Assembly: GCA_038087875.1 (NCBI GenBank)
Contig: CM075995.1
Span: 5,706,001-5,770,000 of the forward strand
Direction of reading: 5' to 3'
Length of the DNA: 64,000 bases
From: Malacoraja senta
Taxonomy: Eukaryota
Below, in pieces: positions 10,162-61,106 of the stretch. The position numbers and the translations under genes were made by a program. The number at the start of each line of letters is the position of its first letter. Position 1 is the stretch's first letter. The notes beneath the pieces were generated by a model that was not told where the DNA came from, did no database searches, and saw nothing but the letters and a program-made list of their open reading frames with translations.

Positions 10162-10331
10162 TCAGATCCACTTTCCACCATCTGCGTTAGGAGGGAGATG
10201 CCGTCAAGGTTAATGAACTCCTGGGCAAAGGTGACGTCGAGGGAATGATTAGCCAAGTCTTTCAGTGCTTCTAATTTAGCATCCATGCTGGAAGACTGGA
10301 TTCTCTCATGGATCGCCTGTGCAATTTGCGT
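10162..10331 (-). CDS. ELMO1: ELMO1 coding exon 5, TQIAQAIHERIQSSSMDAKLEALKDLANHSLDVTFAQEFINLDGISLLTQMVESGS; gene continues beyond the left edge
   Basis: 170 bp, acceptor TATCCAG, donor GA|GTAAGT. HERIQSSSMDAKLEALKDLA and DVTFAQEFINLDGISLLTQMVESG fit ELMO1 rather than ELMO2 or ELMO3. Confidence 0.97.
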
Positions 10332-14428: not shown

Positions 14429-16328
14429 CAGAGAGATCATATTAAGTTGTGGGCTGAGCACAACAGAAAGTAAATCTCTCATCAGCATCTCAGTGAGTCA
14501 GCAAATTGCATTTACGGTTCCCAGATGGAATTAAATCTCCTAACCAAAGCACAAGGAAGGCTGTCAAGGAGGAAAGCTGAGACAGAGGGGGAAAATTGCT
14601 TAATCCACAGTGGGCTGAATGTGCATTTTTTTAACCACATGGAGTGATTAAAATGAAATGGCATTGAATAACTAACGGAAACACAGAGAAATGTAGAAAC
14701 AAGGAACTGCAGATGCTGGTTTTAAAAAGAAAGACACACAAAGTGCTGGAGTAACTCAGAGGGTCAGGCAGCATCTTTGGAAAACATGGAGGTGTGAAGC
14801 TACTTCAGAAAGCCCCGACTCAAAACATCACGTATCCATGTTCTCCAGAAATGCTGCTTGACCCTCTGAGTTAGTTTAGTTTCAAGATACAGCGTGGAAA
14901 CAGTCCCCCTAGTGCGCGTCAACTAACGATCACTCGCGCACTCGTTCTGTGTTAGCCCCGTTTTGTGTCCTACACACCACGGGCCACTTACAGAAGCCAA
15001 TTCATCTACAAACTCACACGTCTTTGGAAAGTGGGAAGAAACCAGAGCACCCAGAGAAAATCTATGCGGTCACAGGGAGAATGCATGAACTCCGCACAGA
15101 TAGCACCCATAGTCCGGTTCGAACCCGGGTCCCCAGTGCTGCAAGACAGCATCTCTACCACTGTCTCATGCATGCTTTCAAATCCCTTCAAGTGTTCATC
15201 CAGTGCAAAGACCTGTGGGTACTAAATGTGTCCCCTTTGCACAACCCTTCTTTAAATATAGAAAAATAGTTGCAGGAATAGGCCATTCAGCCCATCGAGC
15301 CAGAACAGCCATTCAATATTATCATGGCTAATCATCTAAAATCAGTACCCCGTTCCTGCTTTCTCCCCGTATCCCTTGATTCCTTTAGCCCTCAGAGCTA
15401 AATCTAACTCTCTCTTGCAAACATCCAGTGAATTGGCCTCCACTGCCTTCCGTGGCAGAGAATTCAACAGATTCACATCTATCTGGGAGAAAATGTTTTC
15501 CCTCATCTCAGTCCTACATGGCCTTCCCCTTATTCTTAAATTGTGACCCCTGGTTCTGGACTCCCCCAACTTGGGGAACATGTCTAAAGAATATATACTT
15601 TAGAAATACAGCGTGGAAACAGGCCCTTGGGCCCACCGAGTCCATGCCAACCAGTACACTAGCACTATCCTACACACTAGGGACAATTAACAACTTCCAG
15701 AAGGCAAAGGAACCTACAAACCTCTGTGTCTTTGGAGTGTGGGAGGAAACTAGAGCACCCGGAAAAAACCCACGCAGTTACAGGAAGAACATGCAAACTC
15801 CATACAGACAGCATTGCAAATGCTACTGAAAACCTCAAACATCTCATCATCGTCCACTCACCCCACAGTTGTGCCCCTATTTGTACTGTATCAACCACAT
15901 TCTCAAAATCTGAATCCTCTCTCAAACATAGACATATACGGACTTCTATCTTTCCATCCATTTCTCATCCCTGCATCTCCCTCCCTCCTGTATGTTGCTT
16001 CACAAGTCCCCACACCCTCTGTGCATTTTGCTTTGTTGCAATAGCCAGCATGTTCATAAGTGATAGGAACAGAATTAGGCCATTCGGCCCATCAATCATG
16101 GCTGATCTATCTCTCCCTCCTTACCCCATGCTCCAGCCTTTTCCCCATAACCCCTGACACCTGTACTAATCTACAATCTATCTATCTCTACTCTGCATAG
16201 CACGGAAAATAACATACATCCTCCATTCAACTCTGTCCGTTTGTTATTTCAGTTCCCATGTTTTATTAAAGATCCTTTGATCGCAACCACATGCCCACAC
16301 AGGGAGCATTTTGAACGTGTAGACTTGC

Positions 16329-20670: not shown

Positions 20671-21609
20671 GTGCGTAGGATAGTGTACGGGGATCGCTAT
20701 TTGGCATGGACTCGGTGAGCCGAAGGGCTTGTTTCCGCTCTGTTTCTCTAAATTAAACTAAAGTCAGCAGATCAGGGAATAAGGGGAGTCATGATCACAT
20801 TGAATGGCTGGCTCGAAGGGCCGAATGGCCTACTCCTGCACCTATTGTCTATTGTCAGGCAGCATCTCTAAAGAAAATGGATAGGTGACTTTTCAGGTGT
20901 CTGAACAAGGGTCCCGACCCATAACGTCATTTATTCATTTTCTCCAGATATTCCGCCTGAACCGCTGATTTACTCCAGCATTTTGTGTCTATCTTGAGTA
21001 GAAGTTAGTTCTGGGCAGTTAGCACAATCTTCATAGAAATATAGAAAAATAGGTTGAGGAGTAGGCCATTCAGCCCTTTGAGCCTGAACCGCCATTCAAT
21101 ATAATCATGGCTGATCATCTAAAATCAGTACCCCGTTCCTGCTTTTCCCCCATATCCCTTGATTCCTTTAGCCCTAAGAGCTAAATCTAACTCTCTCTTG
21201 AAAACATCCAGCGAATTGGCCTCCACTGCCTTCTGTGACAGAGAATTCCACAGATTCACAATTCTCTGGGTGAATAATTTTTCCTCATCTCAGTCCTAAA
21301 TGGCCCACCCCTTATTCTTAAACTGTGACCCTGCTTCTGGACTCCCCCAACATCGGGAACATTTTCCTGCATCTAGCCTATCCAATCCTTAAAGAATTTG
21401 ATATCTATATTACTAAAAGTCTCATCTTGACCACTTCCTGTTGCACTGTATATTGATTTTAGGAAAAACGCTGCCACTTACGGCTGTGATTTTCTGGCCA
21501 TCTTACTCAGAGTCCCCCTCCGCTGGTCAGGACAAGAGGATTTTCCCCATCGATGAAAAATAAAAGACTTATTAACGTTTAAAAAATGTTGAGATTCTAT
21601 CTCCTGAAG

Positions 21610-21748
21610 GCCACGCCCCTTCTGGAGGGACTATAAAACCCGGAAGTGTGGAGGTGCCTCAGTTCTCTACAAGATGGGGGAGCGAGAGGTCGCGATTCTC
21701 AGTCTGAGCTGTGAATAACACTGAACACATGTCTACTAAATTGTGAGT
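21610..21748 (+). promoter_or_regulatory. Pol II core-promoter-like cassette in the Helitron 5' module
   Basis: CCACGCCC (Sp/KLF), TATAAAA 21632-21638, CCGGAAGT (ETS), Inr TCAGTT with A at 21661 (29 nt from TATA), GTGAGT donor at 21743. TATA-Inr spacing is repeated at 22769/22798 and 47386/47416. Confidence 0.5.
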
Positions 21749-21789
21749 GGTTTTACTGACCTGTCAGTGCCCTTAATGTGGTTTAAAAA

Positions 21790-22515
21790 TGTAGTTTGAA
21801 AATGCAAAAGTGTGTTTTGGTTTGAAAATGCTAAAGCTGTGTTGCCTTTGGTTTGAAATGCTAAAGCTCTGTTGCCTTTGGTTTGAAAATGCTAAAGCTG
21901 CGTTGCCTTTGGTTTGAAAATGCTAAAGCTGCGTTGCCTTTGGTTTGAAAATGCTAAAGCTGCGTTGCCTTTGGTTTGAAAATGCTAAAGTTGCCTTGCC
22001 TAATTGAAAAGATGGTTTGAGAATGCTAAAGTTGCCTTGCCTAATTGAAAAGTTGGTTTGAGAATGCTAAAGTTGCCTTGCCTAATTGAAAAGTTGGTTT
22101 GAGAATGCAGAAGTTGCCTTGCCTAATTAAAAAGTTGGTTTGAGAATGCCTTGCCTAATTGAAAAGTTGGTTTGAGAATGCCTTGCCTAATTGAAAAGTT
22201 GGTTTGATAATGCTAAAGTTGCCTTGCCTAATTGAAAAGATGGTTTGGGAATGCTAAAGTTGCCTTGCCTAATTGAAAAGTTGGTTTGAGAATGCTAAAG
22301 TTGCCTTGCCTTATTGAAAAGTTGGTTTGAGAATGTTAAAGTTGCCCTGCCTAATTGAAAAGTTGGTTTGAGAATGCTAAAGTCACCTTGCCTAATTGAA
22401 AAGTTGGTTTGAGAATGCTAAAGTTGCCATGCCTAATTGAAAAGTTGGTTTGAGAATGCTAAAGTTGCCTTGCCTAATTGAAAAGTTGGTTTGAAAATGA
22501 AAAAGTTGCCTTGCC
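21790..22515 (+). repeat. Minisatellite inside the Helitron: ~31-bp units switching to ~41-bp units
   Basis: GGTTTGAAAATGCTAAAGCTGCGTTGCCTTT then GGTTTGAGAATGCTAAAGTTGCCTTGCCTAATTGAAAAGTT, with two 32-bp deletion variants. Confidence 0.95.
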
Positions 22516-22844
22516 GTCTATATAATTAAAAGTCTAATCTTGACCACTTCCTGTTTGCGCTGTATATTGATTTTAGGAAAAACGCTACCACGTACGGCTG
22601 TGATTTTTGGCCATCTTACTCAGAGCCCCCCCCCCCCTCCGCTCATCAGGTGCTGAGGATTTTTCCCATCGATGAAAAATATAAAAGTTATTAGTGTTTA
22701 AAAAATGTTGAGATTCTCTCTCCTGTCAATCACGCCACGAAGGCCATGCCCCTTCTGCTGGGAGGGACTATAAAACCTGGAAGTGTGGGCGTGGTTCAGT
22801 CTCTGCAAGAAGGGGGAGGGAGAGGTCACGACTCTCTGTCTTTA

Positions 22845-23000
22845 GTGGCCTTGCACCCTGCTATGAAACTGCATTTGAATTTGGTGGCCTTGCACCCTGC
22901 TCGAAATGGTAGGAAACTGCACTCGAATTTGGTGGCCTTGCACTCTGCTTGAAATGGTAGGAAACTGCACTCGAATTTGGTGGCCTTGCACCCTGCTCGA
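22845..23000 (+). repeat. ~48-bp tandem repeat inside the Helitron
   Basis: GTGGCCTTGCACCCTGCTCGAAATGGTAGGAAACTGCACTCGAATTTG, about 3 copies. Confidence 0.9.
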
Positions 23001-24097
23001 AGCGGCATTTCAAGGAATAGCCGTGAGTCAACAGCCAGCCCACCAGCCGTGAGTGAGTGAGCTGCCAGCACAACAGGCTTGAGTGACTGAGCCGCCAGCC
23101 CAAGAATCCATTCGGCCCACAATGTCCATACTAGCCCTCTGGAAACCAGTCCCTTCAGCCCACAACACCCATATTAGCACTCCAGAAAGCCCCCCCCCCC
23201 CCATCCCCACGGGTCGCCAATATTGGTATTGATGGAGAGGTGGAATATTGCGTTGGGGGACCAGCCCTCCCGTGTGAAGCTGGGACCCAACGGGTCCCAC
23301 TTAGTCTAGTGTTTCTATAAGATCTCCTCTCATCCTTCTAAATGCAAGTGAATACAAGCCCAGTCGACCCATTCTTTCATCATATGTCTTGATGAAAATT
23401 GTAAACTTGTAAAATTGTGACTTCAATCAGTCAGGCTGGCACTGAGGGATAGGGAGAACAAAGATATCTATCAAACATACAAGGTAGTGGCACTGATCCA
23501 CTGTGGGATGCCGTCAATTGCTTGTTTGCCTTGTTCCCTTGAGAGAGCCGTACTCTTGGGCAGCAGATAAACAGGAGTATGTGGAAAGCTCCCTGGTACT
23601 CAGGTCTTGGACACAACACATATTCCTTCTATCCGCTCCGAGATTTTGGCTCCCAACTTGGCCCAGCGAAGCTTTGGAGGAACCAAATCAAAAACATGAA
23701 ATCAGACACAAGAGACTGCAGACGCTGGAACAAAAATAAAACAAACTGCTGCAGGAACTCAAGTAGCATGGGTGGAGGCAGAGGGATGGCCAAGTTTTGG
23801 GTCGAGACTGCATCTGGACTCTCCAGCAGTTTGCCTTCAGTGTAAAATTAGTTTCACGCTTGACATCAACACTGACACCAAATCTTGTATACATTCATTT
23901 TTAAAAAAACATTATGTAAGCCACCTCAGAAGACAAGCTGTGGACAGTTCGTGAGTTCAAGCCACAGCCTAATCCACATATCCAAACATGAACACGTGCC
24001 AGGAAATAATCCTCACACAGAAATGCAAACAGAACGTTAGAATCAAGGTCGCAATCTCCCAGAGTGGCGCTGGGAACTCAGTGCGGCTTCCAGACAT

Positions 24098-38900: not shown

Positions 38901-41627
38901 GCATTTCTGGGCGGGGAATTCCAAAGGTTAAAGTCAAACCAGCTGAAGACTTGGCCACCAACAGCACAGCAATAAAAGCTTGGAATGTACCAATATTCAG
39001 TAATGGAGGCATGTAGAGTAATGAGCAGGGTTGGAAAGTTCATAAGTAATAGGAGCAGAATTAGGCCATTCAGCCCATCAGCTGGAGGATGTTACAGGGA
39101 CAGGGAGGTTTGAAGGAGAATTGAACATGATCTGCACTGTGGCGCAGCGGTAGAGTTGCTGCCTTACAGCGCAAGAGTCCCGGGTTCGCTCCTGCCTACA
39201 GGTGCTGCCTGTAAGGAGTTTGTACGTTCTCCCCGTGACCGCGTGGGTTTTCCCGGGGTGCCCCAGTTTCCTCCCACACTCCAAAGACGTACAGGTTTGT
39301 AAGTTAATCGGGTGCGTAGAAATTGTAAATTGTTCCTGATGTACGGGGATCGATGTTTGCCGCGGATTCGCTGAGCCGAAGGGCCTGTTTCCGCACTGTA
39401 TCTATCTTGATTAGTAAGGGTGTCGAGGGTTATGGGGAGAAGGCAGAGGAATGAGGTCGAGAGGGAAAGGTAGATCAGCCATGATTTTCCAGCATCTGCA
39501 GTTCCTTCTTGAACATCAGCCATGATTGAATGGATGAGTAGAATTGATGGGCCAATTGGCCTAATTCAGCCCCTGCCACTAATGAACGTATGAACTAAAA
39601 CTGAAAACTAAACTGAGTTTGATCAGGACCAGTAGAGCTTTAGAAAGGCTCAAGTTTGCACAAAGTGAACATGTTGCTGCAGGTACTGAGAGAAGTATAA
39701 GCAATTTAAGGCAAGGACACACACATCCAGCATTGTTAATATTTATCTAACCCCTCCCTGCACTGAAAAGCCAGTTAACCGTACAAGCAACGGTTTGATT
39801 TCTATTCTCTGAAAACATCTGTGTTGCCTTGCTGATTCAATTGGATTGCAATTCTGTTCTTGTTGATGCAAACAAGATATTCTTTCTTAACCATGTGGAC
39901 AGCTGTGAGCAAGATATGTAATTCAACCTCTGCATCACAACAGTGGGTTATTGTGTTGCGCTAAACACAAAGTGCTGGAGGAACTGAGCGGGTCAAGCAT
40001 CATCTGCGGAGGAAATGGACAGATGATGTTTCGGGTCAGGGGGACCCTTCTTCGGATCGATGTAGTGGGGGGAGATAGGTGGGTGTGTGACAAAGCAATT
40101 CATAGGTGGATAGACAGATGAGAGGGGCTTTGGCTGACATATGGGTGGAGTAAGTAACAAAGGCTAGGGTGGCGCAGAGGTATAGTCGCTGCCTTATAGC
40201 GTCGGAGACCCAGGTTCGATCCTGACTACAGGTGCTGTCCGTACGGAGTCTGTACATTCTCCTCGTGACCTGTGTGGGTTTTACTCCGGGTGCTCCGGTT
40301 TCCTCCCACACTCCAACGACGTACAGTTTTGCAGGTTAAATGGCTTGGTAAAATTGTAAATTGTCCCGAGTATGCGTAGGATAGTGCTACATGCGGGGAT
40401 CGCTGGTCAGCACGAACTCAGTGGGCCGAGGGGCCTGTTTCCGCACTGCATCTCTGAACTAAACTAAAATAAACGAGAGACAAAAAGGAGACAACGTGTG
40501 TCAGATAAAGAGAGGAGTGAAATGTAATTAGAGGGATGGATACAGGTGGACGAGGATAGGGGAGAGCAGAAGAGGAGGGATGAAGGGGAAATGAGGGACT
40601 TGGATGTGACATGAGTATATGAAGGAGGGGAAAGGAACAGGGTGACTGGGAGGGTGCAAGATGGGAGAAACAGGTACACATCAGGTGGAGGGGTCACCTA
40701 GGAAAGAGAGGGGTTTGGGGGGATTACATGAAATTGGAGAATTCAATGTAAGCTAACCAAGCATGATATGAGATGCTGTTCCTTGAGTTTGTCTCCTTGT
40801 GTTACAGTCCTATGTTTATATTTTACAGATTATGAACAGTAAGAATCGGGTTTAGCAGCTGGATAAAAGAGACCAGTGCCTTAGGCTCATTAGAACCCAA
40901 ATGGCACGTCACAAGTATTATCAATGGACACACACAGTAATCATCCTGGTGACTGATATGACGAATCTCTTGAATGAATGCCAAAATCCTCCCAAACATT
41001 CGGCTGTGCTTGCTTGCATCATGTTTAAAATTCACCACACTTCCATCTGAACAGAATTTACTCGGGGATTAAAGAGGATGTATTCTTCCTCCACACATCC
41101 CAATGGCATTCCAGATGCCGAAGGAGGGGGACATACAGACTGCGCTCTGAACCAATACACTCAATGGCGCTTTATTTGTCACAAGTGTAACAGTACAGTG
41201 AAATTCTTTTGGCATATTTACACGTGCAGGTGCCGCCGCGTTTAGGCACCATTTCCGCAAGTCCTGTCCGCCCACGCGCTCGGTCTACTGGAGCGGTTCC
41301 CGATCCAGGCAAGCCCCAGGCTCCTGCAAGGCCTCCCTCCATCGCCTTCGACCGGATCGGCACGCAAACCCATGTCCCTCTCATTGCTTGGCCATCTTTG
41401 TGTGAAGGGAGCACATCCTCCAGCCAACCTTGAAGGCGCTGGAGGCATTAGCCCAGTTCACCCTCCTGCTGGCCGGCCCTTGCTCCTCGTCTCCACAGTC
41501 TTTAGACCACAGGAGTTAAGAGTGGGGAGAAATGCGTTTTGACAGATTTCACAGCTGATCTTGGACCCATTACATTCGTCCAATGCTATTTAATTAAATA
41601 ATGCCTTCCTTTTTTTTTGTTTTATAG

Positions 41628-41764
41628 GCTCAAAGCATACAGGCTCATCTTTGAACTACAGAGGATTGCTTTCAATGCAGAACCGGAACCAAGCAACAGC
41701 GGCAGCATTGAGAGATGGAAATCCATGTACATACACCAGGGATTATAAAAAAGTGGGCTTCATT
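41628..41764 (+). pseudogene. ELMO1: Inverted, frameshifted copy of a downstream ELMO1 exon (AQRDIIFELRRIAF...KSMYTRDYKKLGFI exon)
   Basis: Reads AQS[+4 nt]LIFELQRIAFNAEPEPSNSGSIERWKSMY[+4 nt ATAC]TRDYKKVGFI. Keeps the polypyrimidine tract, TAG acceptor and GTAAAT donor; opposite strand to the gene. Confidence 0.85.
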
Positions 41765-42009
41765 GTAAATTCACTCATTCATTGGGAATATACTGCAAGA
41801 GAGCGCTATGTAAGGTTGTTTCAAGAGATAGACACAAGTACTGCAGATGCCTGTTTACAAAAAGAGATACAAAGTGCTGGAGTAACTCAGCGGTGTCAGG
41901 CACCCTCTCTGGAGAACATGGATAGGCAGCATGAGAACGATGTCGGGTCCTCGCCTCGATCCGAATGTAATAAACACACTTCAAGGACACTGAACAGCTT
42001 CAAATTACC

Positions 42010-43020
42010 AGAGAGCATTCTGAGGGATAGGTTATACAGGCATTTGGATGGGCAAGGGCTGATTAGGGATAGTCAGCATGGTCATGTCCGTGGGAGGCCG
42101 TATCTCACAAATCTGATTGATTTTTTGAAGACGTGACCAAAAAGGTCAATGAGGGCAGAGCTGTAGATGTTGTGTACATGGATTTCAGTAAGGTATTCAA
42201 CAAGGTTCCGCATGGTAGGCTGCTCTGGAAGATTAGAAAGCTTGAGATCCAAGGAGAGATAGCTAAATGGATAGCAAATTGGCTTCATGGTAGGAAGGTG
42301 GAAGGTTGCTTCTCGGACTGGAGGCCTGTGACTAGTGCTGTGCGTCAGAGTTTGGTGTTGGGCCTGGTACTGATCTACATCAATGATTTGGAAGAGAACA
42401 TACAGGGCAAAATTAGCAAGTTTGCTGATGATACTAAAGTGGGTAATTTTGCAGATAGAGAAGACGGTTGTGAACGATTGCAGCAGGATCTTGATCGATT
42501 GGCCAGGTGGGCTGAGGAATGGTTGATTGAATTTAATACAGAGAAATGTGAGGTGTTGCATTTTGGGAAGTCTAACAAGGGCAGGACCTACACACTGAAT
42601 GGTAGGCCTCTGGGGAGTGTTGTAGAGCAGAGGGATCTAGGAGTATAGGTGCATGGTTCCTTGAAGGTCGAGTCGCAGGTAGATAAGGTGGTCAAAAAGC
42701 CATTTGGCACAATTGGCCTTCATCAGTCAAGAGTATTGAGTATAGAAGTTGGGAGGTCATGTTGCAATTGTATAAAAGGTTGGTGAGACCACATGAGTAT
42801 TGTGTTCAATTCTGGGCACCATGTTATAGGAAAAATATTGTCAAGCTTGAAAGGGTTCAGAGAAGATTTAGAAGGATGTTTCGTCCTCATCTCCTTCCTT
42901 AAAGAACCTCCTTTAATTCTGAGGCAATGACCTCTAGTCCTAGACACTCCCACTGGTGGAAACACCCTCTCCACATCCACTCTATTCAAGCCTTTCACTA
43001 GTCTGCATGTTTCAATGAGG
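42010..43020 (+). mobile_element. CR1 RT fragment (42010-42878, +) abutting an inverted CR1 piece (42880-43020)
   Basis: DSQHG, VDVVYMDFSK, ISKFADDTK, FNTEKCEVLHFG motifs. Confidence 0.9.
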
Positions 43021-47120: not shown

Positions 47121-47913
47121 TCTATCTATATAACTAAAAGTCTCATCTTGACCACTTCCTGCCTGCACTGTATATTTATTTTAGAAAAAACGCTACCATA
47201 TATCGCTATGATTTTTGGCCATCTTACTCACAGTCCTCCTCCGCTGAGGCAGCCCCGAGGATTTTTCCGATCGATGAAAAATAAAAAAAGTTATGAGTAT
47301 TTAGAAAATCTTGAGATCAGCTGATTGGTCCTCCCGCCTGTCACCACGATGAAGGTAACGCCCCTACCGGGGGGGGGGGCAGGACTATAAGACCCCAGAT
47401 GCCTGGACGCGAGTCAGTCACTCTGGAAGATCGCGAGGGAGAGTCCACAACTGTGATTCTAAGCTGTGAATCAACTGAACTGTGAGTCTGCAATGTACTT
47501 GGAATAAATAATGTGTTAGCCTTTAATGACAATGCAATGAGTTGTTTGGCAAATTGGTGGCCTGCACTGCTTGAAATGCTATGAAATTGAATTTGGTGGC
47601 CTGCACTCTGCTTGAAATGCTATGAAATTGAATTTGGTGGCCTGCACTCTGCTTGAAATGGAATTTCAAGGAATAGCCATGAGTGGACTGCAAGCCCACC
47701 AGCCCCGAGTAACTGATCTGCCAGCCCACCAGCCCTGAGTGACTGAGCTGCCAGCCCACCAGCTCTGAGTGACTGAGCTGCCAGCCCACCAGCCCTGAGC
47801 TGCCAGCCCACCAGCCCTGAGTGACTGAGCTGTCAGCCCGCCAGGCCTGAGTGACTGAGCTGCCAGCCTACCAGGCCTGAGTGACTGAGCTGCCAGCCCT
47901 CCAGGCCTGAGTG
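47121..47913 (+). mobile_element. Helitron of the same family, 5' part; 3' end interrupted before the assembly gap
   Basis: A|TCTATCTATATAACTAAAAGTCTCATCTTGACCACTTCCTG start, homologous to 21404 and 22517; internal 41-bp and 30-bp tandem arrays. Confidence 0.8.
47690..47913 (+). repeat. 30-bp tandem repeat inside the Helitron
   Basis: GAGTGACTGAGCTGCCAGCCCACCAGCCCT, about 7 copies; degenerate copies also at ~23025-23100. Confidence 0.9.
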
Positions 47914-48315
47914 ACAGCAGCAGCGCAGCGTTGGCTATATCACGGGGCAGGCGATGCCTTACCGGGGATCGCCGTTTGGAGCTCTGGAGTGTTGGGCCTG
48001 CTGCACCGACATCGCGGAGCTGTGGTTCACGGAGCTCCCAATGCGGGCGGCGCTGACCAACATCGCGGAGTCCTGCGACTCTGCCCGGCTCGGCCTGTGG
48101 ACTTCGGGAGCCGCGGACTCCGGTGGGAGATGGCTGATTTGGAGGTCCGGGCCGCTGAGGATGTTCTCCGTCGGGGTTCGGCGTTGGGGTTCCATCGTTC
48201 CCAGCGAGAGGGCCTGAGCATCGGGCCGCCCGTGGCGGCGACTGCGGGTGCTCGGGAGGCCCCGACCATGGGTGAACATCTGGGAAGATCGGCGGGGAGG
48301 CTGGTTGGATTATGG

Positions 48316-48515
48316 NNNNNNNNNNNNNNNNNNNNNNNNNNNNNNNNNNNNNNNNNNNNNNNNNNNNNNNNNNNNNNNNNNNNNNNNNNNNNNNNNNNNN
48401 NNNNNNNNNNNNNNNNNNNNNNNNNNNNNNNNNNNNNNNNNNNNNNNNNNNNNNNNNNNNNNNNNNNNNNNNNNNNNNNNNNNNNNNNNNNNNNNNNNNN
48501 NNNNNNNNNNNNNNN
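48316..48515. other. Assembly gap (200 N)
   Basis: Run of N. Confidence 1.
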
Positions 48516-49136
48516 TTTTAATTCCCAATGTTATTATTTGTTTTAATCCATAAAGATGGATTAACTAAATTGTAAACACATGAAACATTAAAAACCGCAG
48601 TGTTCGATTGTCACTGCTGCCGTTGACACGTTATTACAGAATTCATTTTAACGGCAAAGCAATGCTCTTAATATGGAGTATCAGTACTGTAGTTATTTAA
48701 TGAGCAACATTCACAACCATACGTACGCATATATGTTACCATGGTCCAGGATTTATTGACACAGGTTGATCATACGATGAATAATCCAACCACATTTTTG
48801 TTTGGAAGTGGGAAGAACTAATAGAAATTGCATTAATTGCAATGTGTAAAAAGAGTTGAGATACTGTCTTATAATTTTGCTGCATGTCATTGTGGGATAT
48901 ATCATGTCTTGATTGGTGAATATGTTTAGTTTGTGACTTTATTTGAAGCAGAAATAATATATGAATGCTTCATTGAGTATAATTCCGACTGGTAACTACG
49001 CACTTCGTCCGAGCACATTATCGCACGCGTCATGCAAGCCATCTTAAATGACCACCTACACTGTCATTTGGCAACCTAAAAAGCTGCCAAGATTGCCCGG
49101 CTGGCAACAGGGAAAATAAGTTAAGCGAGAGCCCTG
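48516..49136. mobile_element. Probable hAT-type non-autonomous element; other end lost in the gap
   Basis: Ends GCGAGAGCCCTG, the reverse complement of a CAGGGCTCTC hAT-type terminus, with subterminal GGCAAC motifs. Confidence 0.5.
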
Positions 49137-49468
49137 AAACATCAAAGTCCAATAAAGTTTGATTAAAGATAGTTCAAAGGTTAGTTTGATTTGATGAAGA
49201 CTGACCAGGCTGCTCCATGAATCACTTTACAAGCTAATTTCTTGTACTGTGGTCTGAAAGGCCGGTTCCTGTACTGTATTGTGGTCCTGAACACCTATTC
49301 CTGCTCTGCACTGTTCTATGTTCTATTCCTTTTATCTTTATATTTAAGTTTTTTAAAAACTTAACTTGTGGGCGGCACAGTGGCGTAGCGCTACCGCACT
49401 AGAGGCCCGGGTTCGATCCCGACTATGGGTGCTGTCTGTACGGGTGCTGTTTGTACTTTCTCCCCGTG

Positions 49469-50178
49469 TACACACAGTCCCGTTTATATCAACGGGTCGA
49501 TGGTGGAGAGGGTCAAGAGCTTCAAATTCCTGGGCATGCATATTTCTGAAGATCTCTCCTGGTCCCAGAACACTGATGCAATTATAAAGAAAGCACATCA
49601 GCGCCTCTACTTCCTGAGAAGATTACGGAGAGTCGGTATGTCAAGGAGGATTCTCTCGAACTTCTACAGGTGCACAGTAGAGAGCATGCTGACCGGTTGC
49701 ATCGTGGCTTGGTTCGGCAACTTGAGCGCCCAGGAGCGGAAAAGACTGCAAAAAGTTGTAAACACTGCCCAGTCCATCATCGGCTCTGACCTCACTACCA
49801 TCGAGGGGATCTATCGCTGCCTCAAAAAGGCTGGCAGCATCATCAAGGACCCACACCATCCTGGCCACACACTCATCTCTCCACTGCCTTCATGTAGAAG
49901 GTACAGGAGCCTGAAATCTGCAACATCCAGGTTCAGGAACAGCTTCTTCCCCACAGCCATCAGACTATTGAACTCAACTCAAACAAAATCTGAACTTTAA
50001 TAGCCTATTCCACTTTATCTGATTATTTATGTGTGTATATATATATATATTCAATGGTATATGGACACACTGATCTATTCTGTATTTATTTATGCCTGCA
50101 ATATTCTGTTGTGCTGAAGCAAAGCAAGAATTTCATTGTCCTATCTGGGACACATGACAATAAACTCTCTTGAATCTT
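49469..50178 (+). mobile_element. Rex1/Babar LINE 3' fragment inserted in a SINE
   Basis: FKFLGMHISEDLSWS...KKAHQRLYFLRRL...NSFFPTAIRLLN plus 3'UTR; SINE halves on both sides. Confidence 0.9.
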
Positions 50179-52802: not shown

Positions 52803-54271
52803 AATTCAATTCAATTCAATTCAATTCAATTCAATTCAATTCAACTTTAATGTCATTGCACAAATACTGAGTATGGGTACAACGAAATGCAGTTTTGCGT
52901 CAGTCCGTAGTAGTAGTGCAATATAGAAATTAAAAAAAAAAAAAAAGAGGATACAGAATAATCAAAAATACAGAATAATTAACAATGGGGACGGAGGGAC
53001 CGGAGGAATCTATCGGCGGGACTGCGAGTTCAGCAATGCAACGGTATAATTGTAGAAGCTGTTCCTCATCCTACTGGTACGAGACCTGAGGCTCCTGTAC
53101 CGCCTCCCTGATGGGAGGAGGGCAAACAGTCCATGGTTGGGGTGGGAGGGGTCTTTAATGATCTTCCCGTTTCAGACACCGTTATCGGTGGAGGGCATCC
53201 ATGGCAGGGAACGGGGCACCGATGATGTGCTGCGCGGTTTTCACCACCCGTTGTAGTGCCTTCCTGTCTGCAACAGTGCAGCTGCTGTACCATACCGTGA
53301 AGCAGGTGGTCAGGATGCTCTCGATGGTACACCGGTAGAAGTTGGTCAGGATCTGGGGGGACAGGTGGGCTTTCTTGAGCCTCCTCAGGAAGTAAAGGCG
53401 CTGCTGTGCCTTTTTGATCAGCTTGGAGGTGTTGAGGGACCAGGACAAATCCTCCGAGATGTGTACCCCGAGGAATTTGTAGCTGGAGACGCGCTCCACC
53501 TCAGTCCCGTTTATATGGATGGGGGTATGTCTGCCCCCTCTGACCTTCCTGAAGTCGACAATAATTTCCTTCGTCTTCTTGGAGTTGAGGACGAGGTTAT
53601 TGTTGGCACACCAGGTTGTCAGGTGCTGGACCTCCTCTCTGTAGGCTGACTCATCGTTGTCACTGATCAGTCCTACCACCGTGGTGTCGTCAGCAAACTT
53701 AATGATGGCGTTGGATCCGTACTTAGGGATGCAGTCGTGGGTGAAGAGGGAGTAGAGGAGAGGGCTGAGCACACAGCCCTGTGGCACGCCTGTGTTCAGT
53801 GTTATAGTGGAGGAGGTGAGGTTGTTGACCCTAACAGACTGTGTCTGTTGGTGAGGAAATCCAGTGTCCAGTTGCAGAGGGAGGTGGAGATGCCAAGCCC
53901 GCTGAGTTTGGTGATCAAGCTAGCGGGGATGACAGTGTTAAAAGCGGAGCTGAAATCAATGAACAGCAACCTGATGTAGGAGTTGTTGTTGTCCAGGTGG
54001 GTCAGGGCAGAGTGTAGGGCCGCCGATATGGCGTCCTCTGTAGACCTGTTGGCCCGGTAGGCAAACTGATGGGGGTCCAGTGTGGGGGGGAGGCTGGCTT
54101 TGAGGTGAGCCAAGATCAGCCGCTCAAAGCACTTAGCAATGACAGGGGTGAGTGCCACTGGGCGGAAATCGTTGAGGCTCCCTGTGGCTGACTGTTTGGG
54201 CATTGGCACGATGGTTGATGTCTTGAGGCAAGTGGGGACAACACCCTGGGCCAGTGAGAGATTGAAAAAGC
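52803..54271 (-). mobile_element. Rex1/Babar LINE, 5'-truncated, RT region with frameshifts
   Basis: ORFs 53802-54275 and 53182-53787 contain [44 protein letters not shown] and KKAQQRLYFLRRL; (TTGAA)n tail at 52803-52845. Confidence 0.92.
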
Positions 54272-54869
54272 TCATGTTATAAGCACAAAATTAGGCCATT
54301 CGGCCCATCAAGTCTACTCCGCCATTCAATCATGGCTAATCTATCTTTCCTTCTCAACCTCATTCTCCTGCCTTCTCTTCGTAACCTTTGAAATTACTAT
54401 TCCAGAACCCCTACTAATCAAAACAATAGCAATCTCCGTTTTAAACATACCTAATCACTTGGCCTCCACAGCCGTCATGGCAATGAATTCCACGGGTGAG
54501 TATCAGGGACATGGAAGGGGCGGGTGGTTGACCGAAATGGATGTTCTTCAGGATCGTCTACACTTCATCAAATTCTGTATGCTGGGAAAACAGTTGCTCC
54601 TTATCATCTTGTACTAAAGTGACCAATCAAAGTCCAATACCAAAACAGTAATGCAACACCTAGGATTCTCTCAGGAATTCCATCATGGTAACACCAAAAG
54701 ATCCATAGCTGATTTGGCTATCCTTCCACCTTGACAACAAATTGGGCACCCAAGCGAAGCATGAACTTCAGTGCACTATTGGACTGCCATTCCTCAGAGG
54801 AAACTTTTAAGCTGAAAATTGTGCAGAGAAGATATACGAGGATGTTGCCAGGGCTTGAGGGAGCAAGAG

Positions 54870-60201: not shown

Positions 60202-60982
60202 ACTGAGGTAACGTTTCTTACCATGTGCACATAAGACACACACTCTCCCAAAATTTTAACAAAGGCTATTTCATCCACTTAAAAAATGGTGAGCTATGTA
60301 GCAGCAGCAGCAGCAAGTATTTTTTTAATCTCAATTCGACCTGATGCACATTATTTAAGGCCATGTGGTTTAGGACTTGATCAGACTGAAGCTTAATGCA
60401 AATTTACAACCATTTAAAGTAGCAAAAATACTCATTCTACTTGTGGAAATAACAAACCAGTGCTGGCTTTCTAGAATAAATGGACTGTTGCTTTGTGGAA
60501 TATAAAAGTTACTATTCATATGCCCTTCCACAATACTTTCATTTTTTGTACTCGCAGACCATACAAACTTAATCGTGCACTAGATACTCCCAAAATACTC
60601 AAACTGGCTCCTTACAGACCATTTTAAATTCTAATTACAACATGTTATTGTAGACGGAATAACCGCACCCTGTTACATTCAAGTGCAGTATTGCCTTAAT
60701 GGTGGAAATGAAGCGAATGTCTATGAAGTAACTACACCAGGAAATCCTGTCACAAACCCATTCTCCACAAGTCAAGTCCAAATAAACGTGGTAAAACTCA
60801 GGCGGATTCCATCAACACCGCCCAACACTTTGCACAGAGCAGTTCATCTTCTCGGTAACTTACGATTTCATATCCAGCCAACAAAGACCGTTTAATTTCT
60901 TTGCTCCACCACAGGAATTCAAGAAGCTGACACAGGCACGAAGGTTACGACTTCAGCAATTTGAAAAGGAAGTAGGACTTAC

Positions 60983-61106
60983 ATCACAGCACTGCTCAAA
61001 AGGAAGCTGCACAACAGAACACAACACAGGCGTGTTGCGTCCACAGCAATGGGCCTGAAATCACGATTCGCAGTTACGAGCAGGTGAGTCGGATTCGGAA
61101 GAATTC
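60983..61106 (-). other. Candidate non-coding 5'UTR exon of ELMO1
   Basis: 124-bp non-repeat, CpG-retaining segment bounded by TTTTATTTTTGTTTTCAG| and |GTAAGT on the ELMO1 strand. No recognisable protein similarity. Confidence 0.45.

Follow-up and report, generated by a model that had tools for sequence, protein, structure and literature searches.

The window analysed here, a 64-kb stretch of genomic DNA of which 46% is self-repeated, carries part of ELMO1 on its minus strand. Mapping the protein onto the window placed the ELMO1 coding exon 1, with the ATG, at 27094-27017, coding exon 2 at 19100-19056 and coding exon 3 at 16400-16329, with further coding exons at 12024-11974 and 10331-10161. 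On the minus strand, the exon at 10164-10331 shares 98% identity with the ELMO1 protein of Rhinoraja longicauda and 96% with that of Amblyraja radiata, against 91% for shark ELMO1, which bears out the chondrichthyan host proposed in an earlier note on this DNA and points to a skate. Coding exon 3 ends on a GC-type donor (AAG/GCAAGT at 16328, minus strand). Elsewhere in the window lie retroelement fragments with reverse-transcriptase and ALKBH8_N Pfam matches (53185-54290, 42121-42645 and 49389-49997), and a duplicated pseudo-exon, degenerate and frameshifted, that derives from an internal exon of ELMO1 (41628-41770, plus strand; residues 324-365, 75-80% identical). The latter is found on the strand opposite to ELMO1 and upstream of its ATG exon, is preceded by a polypyrimidine tract and an AG acceptor at 41627, and shares its orientation with the Helitron donor, which is situated 20 kb upstream of it. 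Because of the exon map, the Helitron at 21404-23309 can be placed in the intron that separates coding exon 1 from coding exon 2, antisense to the gene.

This insertion (21404-23309, plus strand) is a genuine non-autonomous Helitron of the canonical (HLE1-type) kind. Both ends are as had been described: TC preceded by A at 21403/21404, and a hairpin at 23281-23299 followed by CTAG at 23306-23309 and then a T. The right terminus (23281-23309, plus strand), with its 8-bp stem, 3-nt loop and 6 nt before the CTAG, is the sole instance of a hairpin with CTRR/T on the plus strand of the window, and its folding energy is unremarkable (z -1.74; 12 of 200 shuffles were equally stable). Joining the flanks restores a host interspersed repeat, into which the element inserted between an A and a T, and copies of this repeat show an ungapped alignment over the restored junction, which confirms that a target duplication is absent. 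In the empty-site BLAST, with 13 rows, seven further copies of this repeat in the window span the junction gap-free, the remaining rows being two self halves, three matches ending before the junction and one starting just before it. We take the host repeat to be a LINE, to which Pfam gave no name. No Helitron Pfam domain was detected among 84 window ORFs (the 60 longest plus those from the elements and exon candidates), the only matches being reverse-transcriptase/ALKBH8_N in other repeats and one sub-threshold repeat match, and Rfam returned no matches on 21300-23400.

The view of 21404-23309 as one Helitron holds insofar as it was inserted as one unit, as seen from the empty-site alignment and empty-site contigs, but it is a composite of two elements, in which copy 1 is without a 3' end of its own. 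Module 1 (21404-21815, plus strand) opens with the left terminal sequence of element 1 (5'-TC, 21404-21596), which is 85-90% identical among three copies. It is followed by internal minisatellites (21816-22515; 31 bp x 6.0 and 41 bp x 13.7) and then by the 5' module of element 2 (22517-22841), with a TATA box at 22769 and an Inr A at 22798. This second module is 82% identical to module 1, and the A/TC start formerly assigned to it has to be dropped, as the preceding base is a G. The arrays of element 2 (22865-23103; 48 bp x 2.9 and 30 bp x 2.7) are homologous to those of copy 3. Since the sole 3' end belongs to element 2 and is directly followed by the host repeat, the whole of 21404-23309 must have moved together. 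Element 2 would have come to sit in or next to the array of element 1 at the donor locus, after which transposition from the TC of element 1, terminating at the hairpin-CTAG of element 2, would have given rise to the composite. Joined Helitron elements comparable to these have been described in Myotis bats (PMC4778049).

Three 5' modules of about 340 bp are indeed present, with 5'-TC termini at 21404, 22517 and 47125; the third aligns from 47125, and the start at 47121 given before adds an extra TCTA. This copy 3 (47125-47918, plus strand) represents a diverged subfamily, with a left terminus, TATAAGA at 47386, an Inr A at 47416, a donor at 47482, and 41-bp and 30-bp arrays, which it has in common with element 2. 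Its 3' end was not found in the window, where family similarity ends near 47918 and an N gap occupies about 48317-48516. The stretch after the arrays (47916-48316) has 67% GC and a CpG observed/expected ratio of 0.95, occurs nowhere else in the window and abuts the N gap; a young repeat nested here, or captured DNA, may account for it. The arrays of both elements (22852-23092 and 47526-47890, plus strand) hold 7 of the 15 window matches to RTGACNNNGC and 8 of the 36 to TGCRCNC, tandem and thus not independent, which we presume to be ARE-like and MRE-like motifs, respectively. In addition, a reverse ETS-like ACTTCCTG, about 30 bp from the TC end, is invariant in the three left termini (21433-21441, 22546-22554 and 47154-47162).

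With respect to ELMO1, copy 3 is 20 kb away from the ATG exon on its upstream side, and lies inside the gene only if spanned by a putative 5'-UTR intron. A unique stretch at 60864-60990 (minus strand) with a GTAAGT donor at its end is a candidate non-coding 5' exon of ELMO1, in which case copy 3 would fall inside the gene. A plus-strand host gene near 60.9 kb, which would make copy 3 sense, was discarded, the ORF having no protein match at E<=10. As such, the statement that all copies are antisense to ELMO1 stands for the composite in its intron, but it concerns just two insertions, one of them this far upstream, and with two insertions the orientation is uninformative.

Directly behind the left terminus of about 190 bp, and oriented inward, a core-promoter-like block is found at 21610-21664 (plus strand). 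It consists of a GC/KLF-like box (about 21611-21618), TATAAAA (21632-21638), CCGGAAGT (21640-21647) and an Inr TCAGTT with its A at 21661, where the motif names are our own assignments from consensus sequences and not from scored matrices. The A of the Inr would open a putative non-coding first exon of 82 nt, which together with the donor GTGAGT (21743-21748) spans 21661-21748 on the plus strand, splice use being predicted. The earlier note had listed such motifs copy by copy, and the inventory survives in part. TATA boxes are positioned at 21632, 22769 and 47386 as stated, although the TATAAGA of copy 3 is non-consensus, and the A of the Inr indeed lies 29, 29 and 30 nt downstream in copies 1, 2 and 3. 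A GC-box-like motif is found in copies 1 and 3, but the upstream GC box of copy 2 is degenerate (CATGCCC), and while the ETS site is present in copy 1 (CCGGAAG at 21640), there is none such in copy 3. The reverse CCAAT of copy 3 was recovered as ATTGG at 47324. The YY1-like GCCATCTT does occur in all three copies, but adds no information, being situated about 165 bp upstream in a generally conserved terminal region. GTGAGT follows the Inr at 82 nt in copy 1 and 66 nt in copy 3, as reported, and the donor segment is missing from copy 2. The exon holds no ATG common to the copies, and the block is common to subfamilies that are 10-45% diverged. A palindrome around the TATA box was set aside, with folding z-scores of -0.9 to +0.3.

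How readily could such an arrangement arise by chance? Of 20,000 dinucleotide-shuffled versions of module 1, 0.18% contained a TATAWAW paired with TCAKTY at a distance of 27-33 nt, and 0.01% had a downstream donor as well; a TATA box with a loose Inr definition was obtained in 1.1% of shuffles. Both strands of the window, with the TATA of copy 3 allowed, contain four TATA+Inr pairs, three of which are the modules. A GC box lies upstream in these three alone, the remaining pair, at 41744, being without GC box or donor. The spacer between TATA and Inr has diverged as had been noted, with 55-75% identity between copies compared to 85-90% for the left terminus. Whether the motifs are better conserved than the spacer had been put forward as a test. 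In the three window copies they are somewhat better conserved, 11 of 12 motif positions being invariant while the spacer has 10 invariant positions out of 20 (Fisher p=0.018), but this choice of motifs is post hoc, as they were picked after seeing those same copies, which moreover share descent. Furthermore, GTGAGT has been retained in copies 1 and 3 despite a difference of 16 nt in exon length and diverged bases right after it.

Part of the element was found in sequencing runs of eight organisms, and in one of these, the DNA run X3, 15,145 contigs match 21364-21815 at a likeness of at least 80%. Here, 243 contigs extend leftwards beyond 21403 into flanking sequence that is unrelated (agreement 0.35), and 129 represent empty sites. 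The family is therefore very large and made up of many independent insertions. Dividing the summed depth of about 1-2 million by the depth of 22-44 in seven of the eight longest contigs points to tens of thousands of copies, a figure meant as an order of magnitude and no more, as contig depth is not copy number. Pattern scans of viral contigs, metagenomes and GTDB genomes yielded no family copies; one 3'-end pattern match, in a 13.8-kb AT-rich, gene-dense contig, had only the 17-nt hairpin in common with the window and was rejected as chance. The donor segment reaches about the same depth in X3 as the terminus and is thus common in the family, its majority context being CT/GTGAGT as in copy 3 (21741 T>C in 98% of depth). 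At 21623 the majority base is C (90% of depth), which creates a second, inverted ETS-like site at 21619-21625. Copy 1 is near the family majority, with seven private changes in 412 bp among the changed positions listed.

Variants at 8-92% in X3 affect, among the changed positions listed, none of the 7 TATA, 6 Inr and 6 donor positions, as against 5 of 20 in the spacer, 4 of 78 in the exon and 9 of 197 in the terminus, counts which cover 28 of the 44 changed positions. It should be noted that X3 depth around the Inr (21652-21699) is 0.10-0.22 million, a five- to tenfold drop from about 1 million elsewhere. Most family copies hence differ from copy 1 there, and conservation of the Inr is poorly sampled. 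Altogether, the layout of GC box, TATA, Inr and donor supports a family-wide, non-random arrangement resembling a Pol II promoter with first exon, as predicted from the motifs.

So far there is no sign that family copies act as working start sites, and we refer to them as candidate promoters. Runs X17 and X18 are RNA by guess only, X15 is probably DNA, and all runs come as contigs; among the runs listed with the element none is RNA on record, which says nothing about expression. Three of the eight X17 pieces listed bridge the donor unspliced, with at least 31 letters on each side, and one listed piece runs from the flank through the terminus to past the TATA box. Among the same listed pieces none has a loose end at 21742, it being understood that contigs show neither starts nor strand. 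These unspliced pieces fit passive read-through or DNA carry-over, and are also compatible with tissue-restricted use. Compared to X3, runs X17 and X18 show a steeper fall in depth after the donor, and in the RNA-guess runs the module is scarcer when set against the host repeat, although contig depth cannot rank parts of the element and the organisms differ.

What, then, is the origin of this block? We would give about an even chance to the block being the element's own old RepHel promoter with a non-coding first exon, which we consider most likely over capture from the host. This reading draws on the block being placed behind the left terminus, pointing inward, lacking a common ATG and being present in all the diverged subfamilies, and on arrays that expand after the block, as an intron would tolerate. 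Position, orientation, absence of an ATG and spread over subfamilies fit a transposase promoter at least as well as a captured one. In an autonomous parent the block would have driven RepHel through a spliced non-coding first exon, would have been kept under selection while master lineages diverged, and would have been carried along in internally deleted derivatives, with minisatellites growing in the former 5'-UTR intron. Most copies, probably including the antisense intronic ones, would now be decaying neutrally and be silent or weak, and a minority may act as exon traps like HelibatN3. Such a 5' promoter is not without precedent in Helitrons: the first 966 bp of the wheat Feng8 Helitron are reported to drive a GUS reporter (PMC13286980), and ChIP peaks are reported at the 5' end of the autonomous Xenopus Heli1Xen1 (PMC12001565). 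However, no autonomous copy came out of the viral, metagenome and GTDB scans or the 84 window ORFs, copy 3 has its non-consensus TATA, copy 2 has lost the donor, and HelibatN3 arrived at a like layout by capture. Moreover, among vertebrate Helitrons a spliced exon in the 5'-UTR is not known to us.

Capture itself, whereby the promoter, first exon and donor of a skate gene were taken up early and then amplified, like NUBPL in HelibatN3, seems to us a rather unlikely origin of the block. The GC-box, ETS and YY1-like motifs do resemble, as far as we can judge, those of vertebrate host promoters. HelibatN3 provides the model, carrying the NUBPL promoter, exon and donor behind its terminus and driving chimeric transcripts, and bat Helitrons with promoters are reported to attain high copy numbers (PMC4224331, PMC4778049); captured promoters of 15 genes have been described in bats (PMC4224331). 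However, HelibatN3 brings along six NUBPL codons, whereas the skate exon is without a common ATG, and neutral decay would be expected of a passenger in non-autonomous masters, yet the motifs are better preserved than the spacer.

We think it unlikely that the block was never a promoter, its motifs having arisen once by chance in an ancestral element and been copied by descent. A single ancestral event among many repeat families scanned would suffice, an unrelated TATA+Inr pair does exist at 41744, and the loose Inr is met in shuffles at the rate given above. The unspliced bridging of the donor and the lack of a loose end at 21742 in the listed X17 pieces point the same way, as does the CpG of the ETS site, which is G>A in 22% of X3 depth. 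Conversely, the full arrangement with donor is this rare in shuffles, the spacing of 29-30 nt is maintained over a diverged spacer, and variant sequences in X17 and X18 retain GTGCCTCAG while adjoining bases differ.

It is quite improbable, in our estimation, that the block is kept in non-autonomous masters since transcription immediately inside the left end aids copying, for instance by opening the TC end, or supercoiling the DNA there, so that the HUH nuclease can act, with tens of thousands of TATA-Inr-exon-donor cassettes, many of them working alternative first exons, as a by-product. That transcription would aid mobilisation is something we infer; Helraiser is reported to require a donor that is double-stranded, even though single strands are what its nuclease cuts (PMC5876387). 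Exaptation of the window copies as ELMO1 regulators, through antisense start sites, can be considered highly improbable: the composite does lie antisense in intron 1-2 of the coding region, but there are just two insertions, a copy 1 near the family majority means that nothing marks an old, selected insertion, and purging of sense-oriented donors would equally leave antisense survivors.

The architecture is already known from HelibatN3 of Myotis, a phenomenon which the skate family, judged by its predicted features, repeats. Both are non-autonomous, with a 5'-TC and a CTAG-3', and in both the left terminus is followed by a promoter (predicted in the skate family), a first exon and a donor, by which the skate family could likewise trap exons lying downstream. 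In HelibatN3, as published, the fragment has a host gene as its traced source, encodes six residues and yields demonstrated chimeric transcripts, whereas the skate exon is a putative one without a common ATG. In Feng8 (PMC13286980) and Heli1Xen1 (PMC12001565) the 5' region likewise acts, or is presumed to act, as transposase promoter, but these elements are autonomous, and the accounts we drew on describe no TATA-Inr-exon-donor block in non-autonomous derivatives. Variable tandem arrays also fill much of the non-autonomous copies of minisatellite-rich Helitrons (Heli2Xen; DINE/HINE; PMC12001565), though Heli2Xen is a Helitron2 family, unlike the skate element with its canonical TC, hairpin-CTAG and A/T target. 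Caenorhabditis Helitrons similarly spread transcription-factor motifs in the form of heat-shock elements, for which binding and gene induction are reported (PMC6927752), the skate motifs being sequence matches.

Helitrons are mentioned nowhere in the little-skate genome papers searched and once each in the papers covering skate and shark, and the words shark, skate and chondrichthyan do not occur in the main text of HELIANO (PMC11417382). Skate Helitrons thus seem undescribed in the literature searched; supplements (of HELIANO and the bat papers), Repbase or Dfam may hold the family. The family would allow one to ask whether Helitrons spread a promoter of their own instead of captured ones. 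Should it be active, the family would supply new first exons throughout the genome of a lineage used as a developmental model, and if its cassettes work, they would constitute a Helitron counterpart of LTR promoters in cartilaginous fish.
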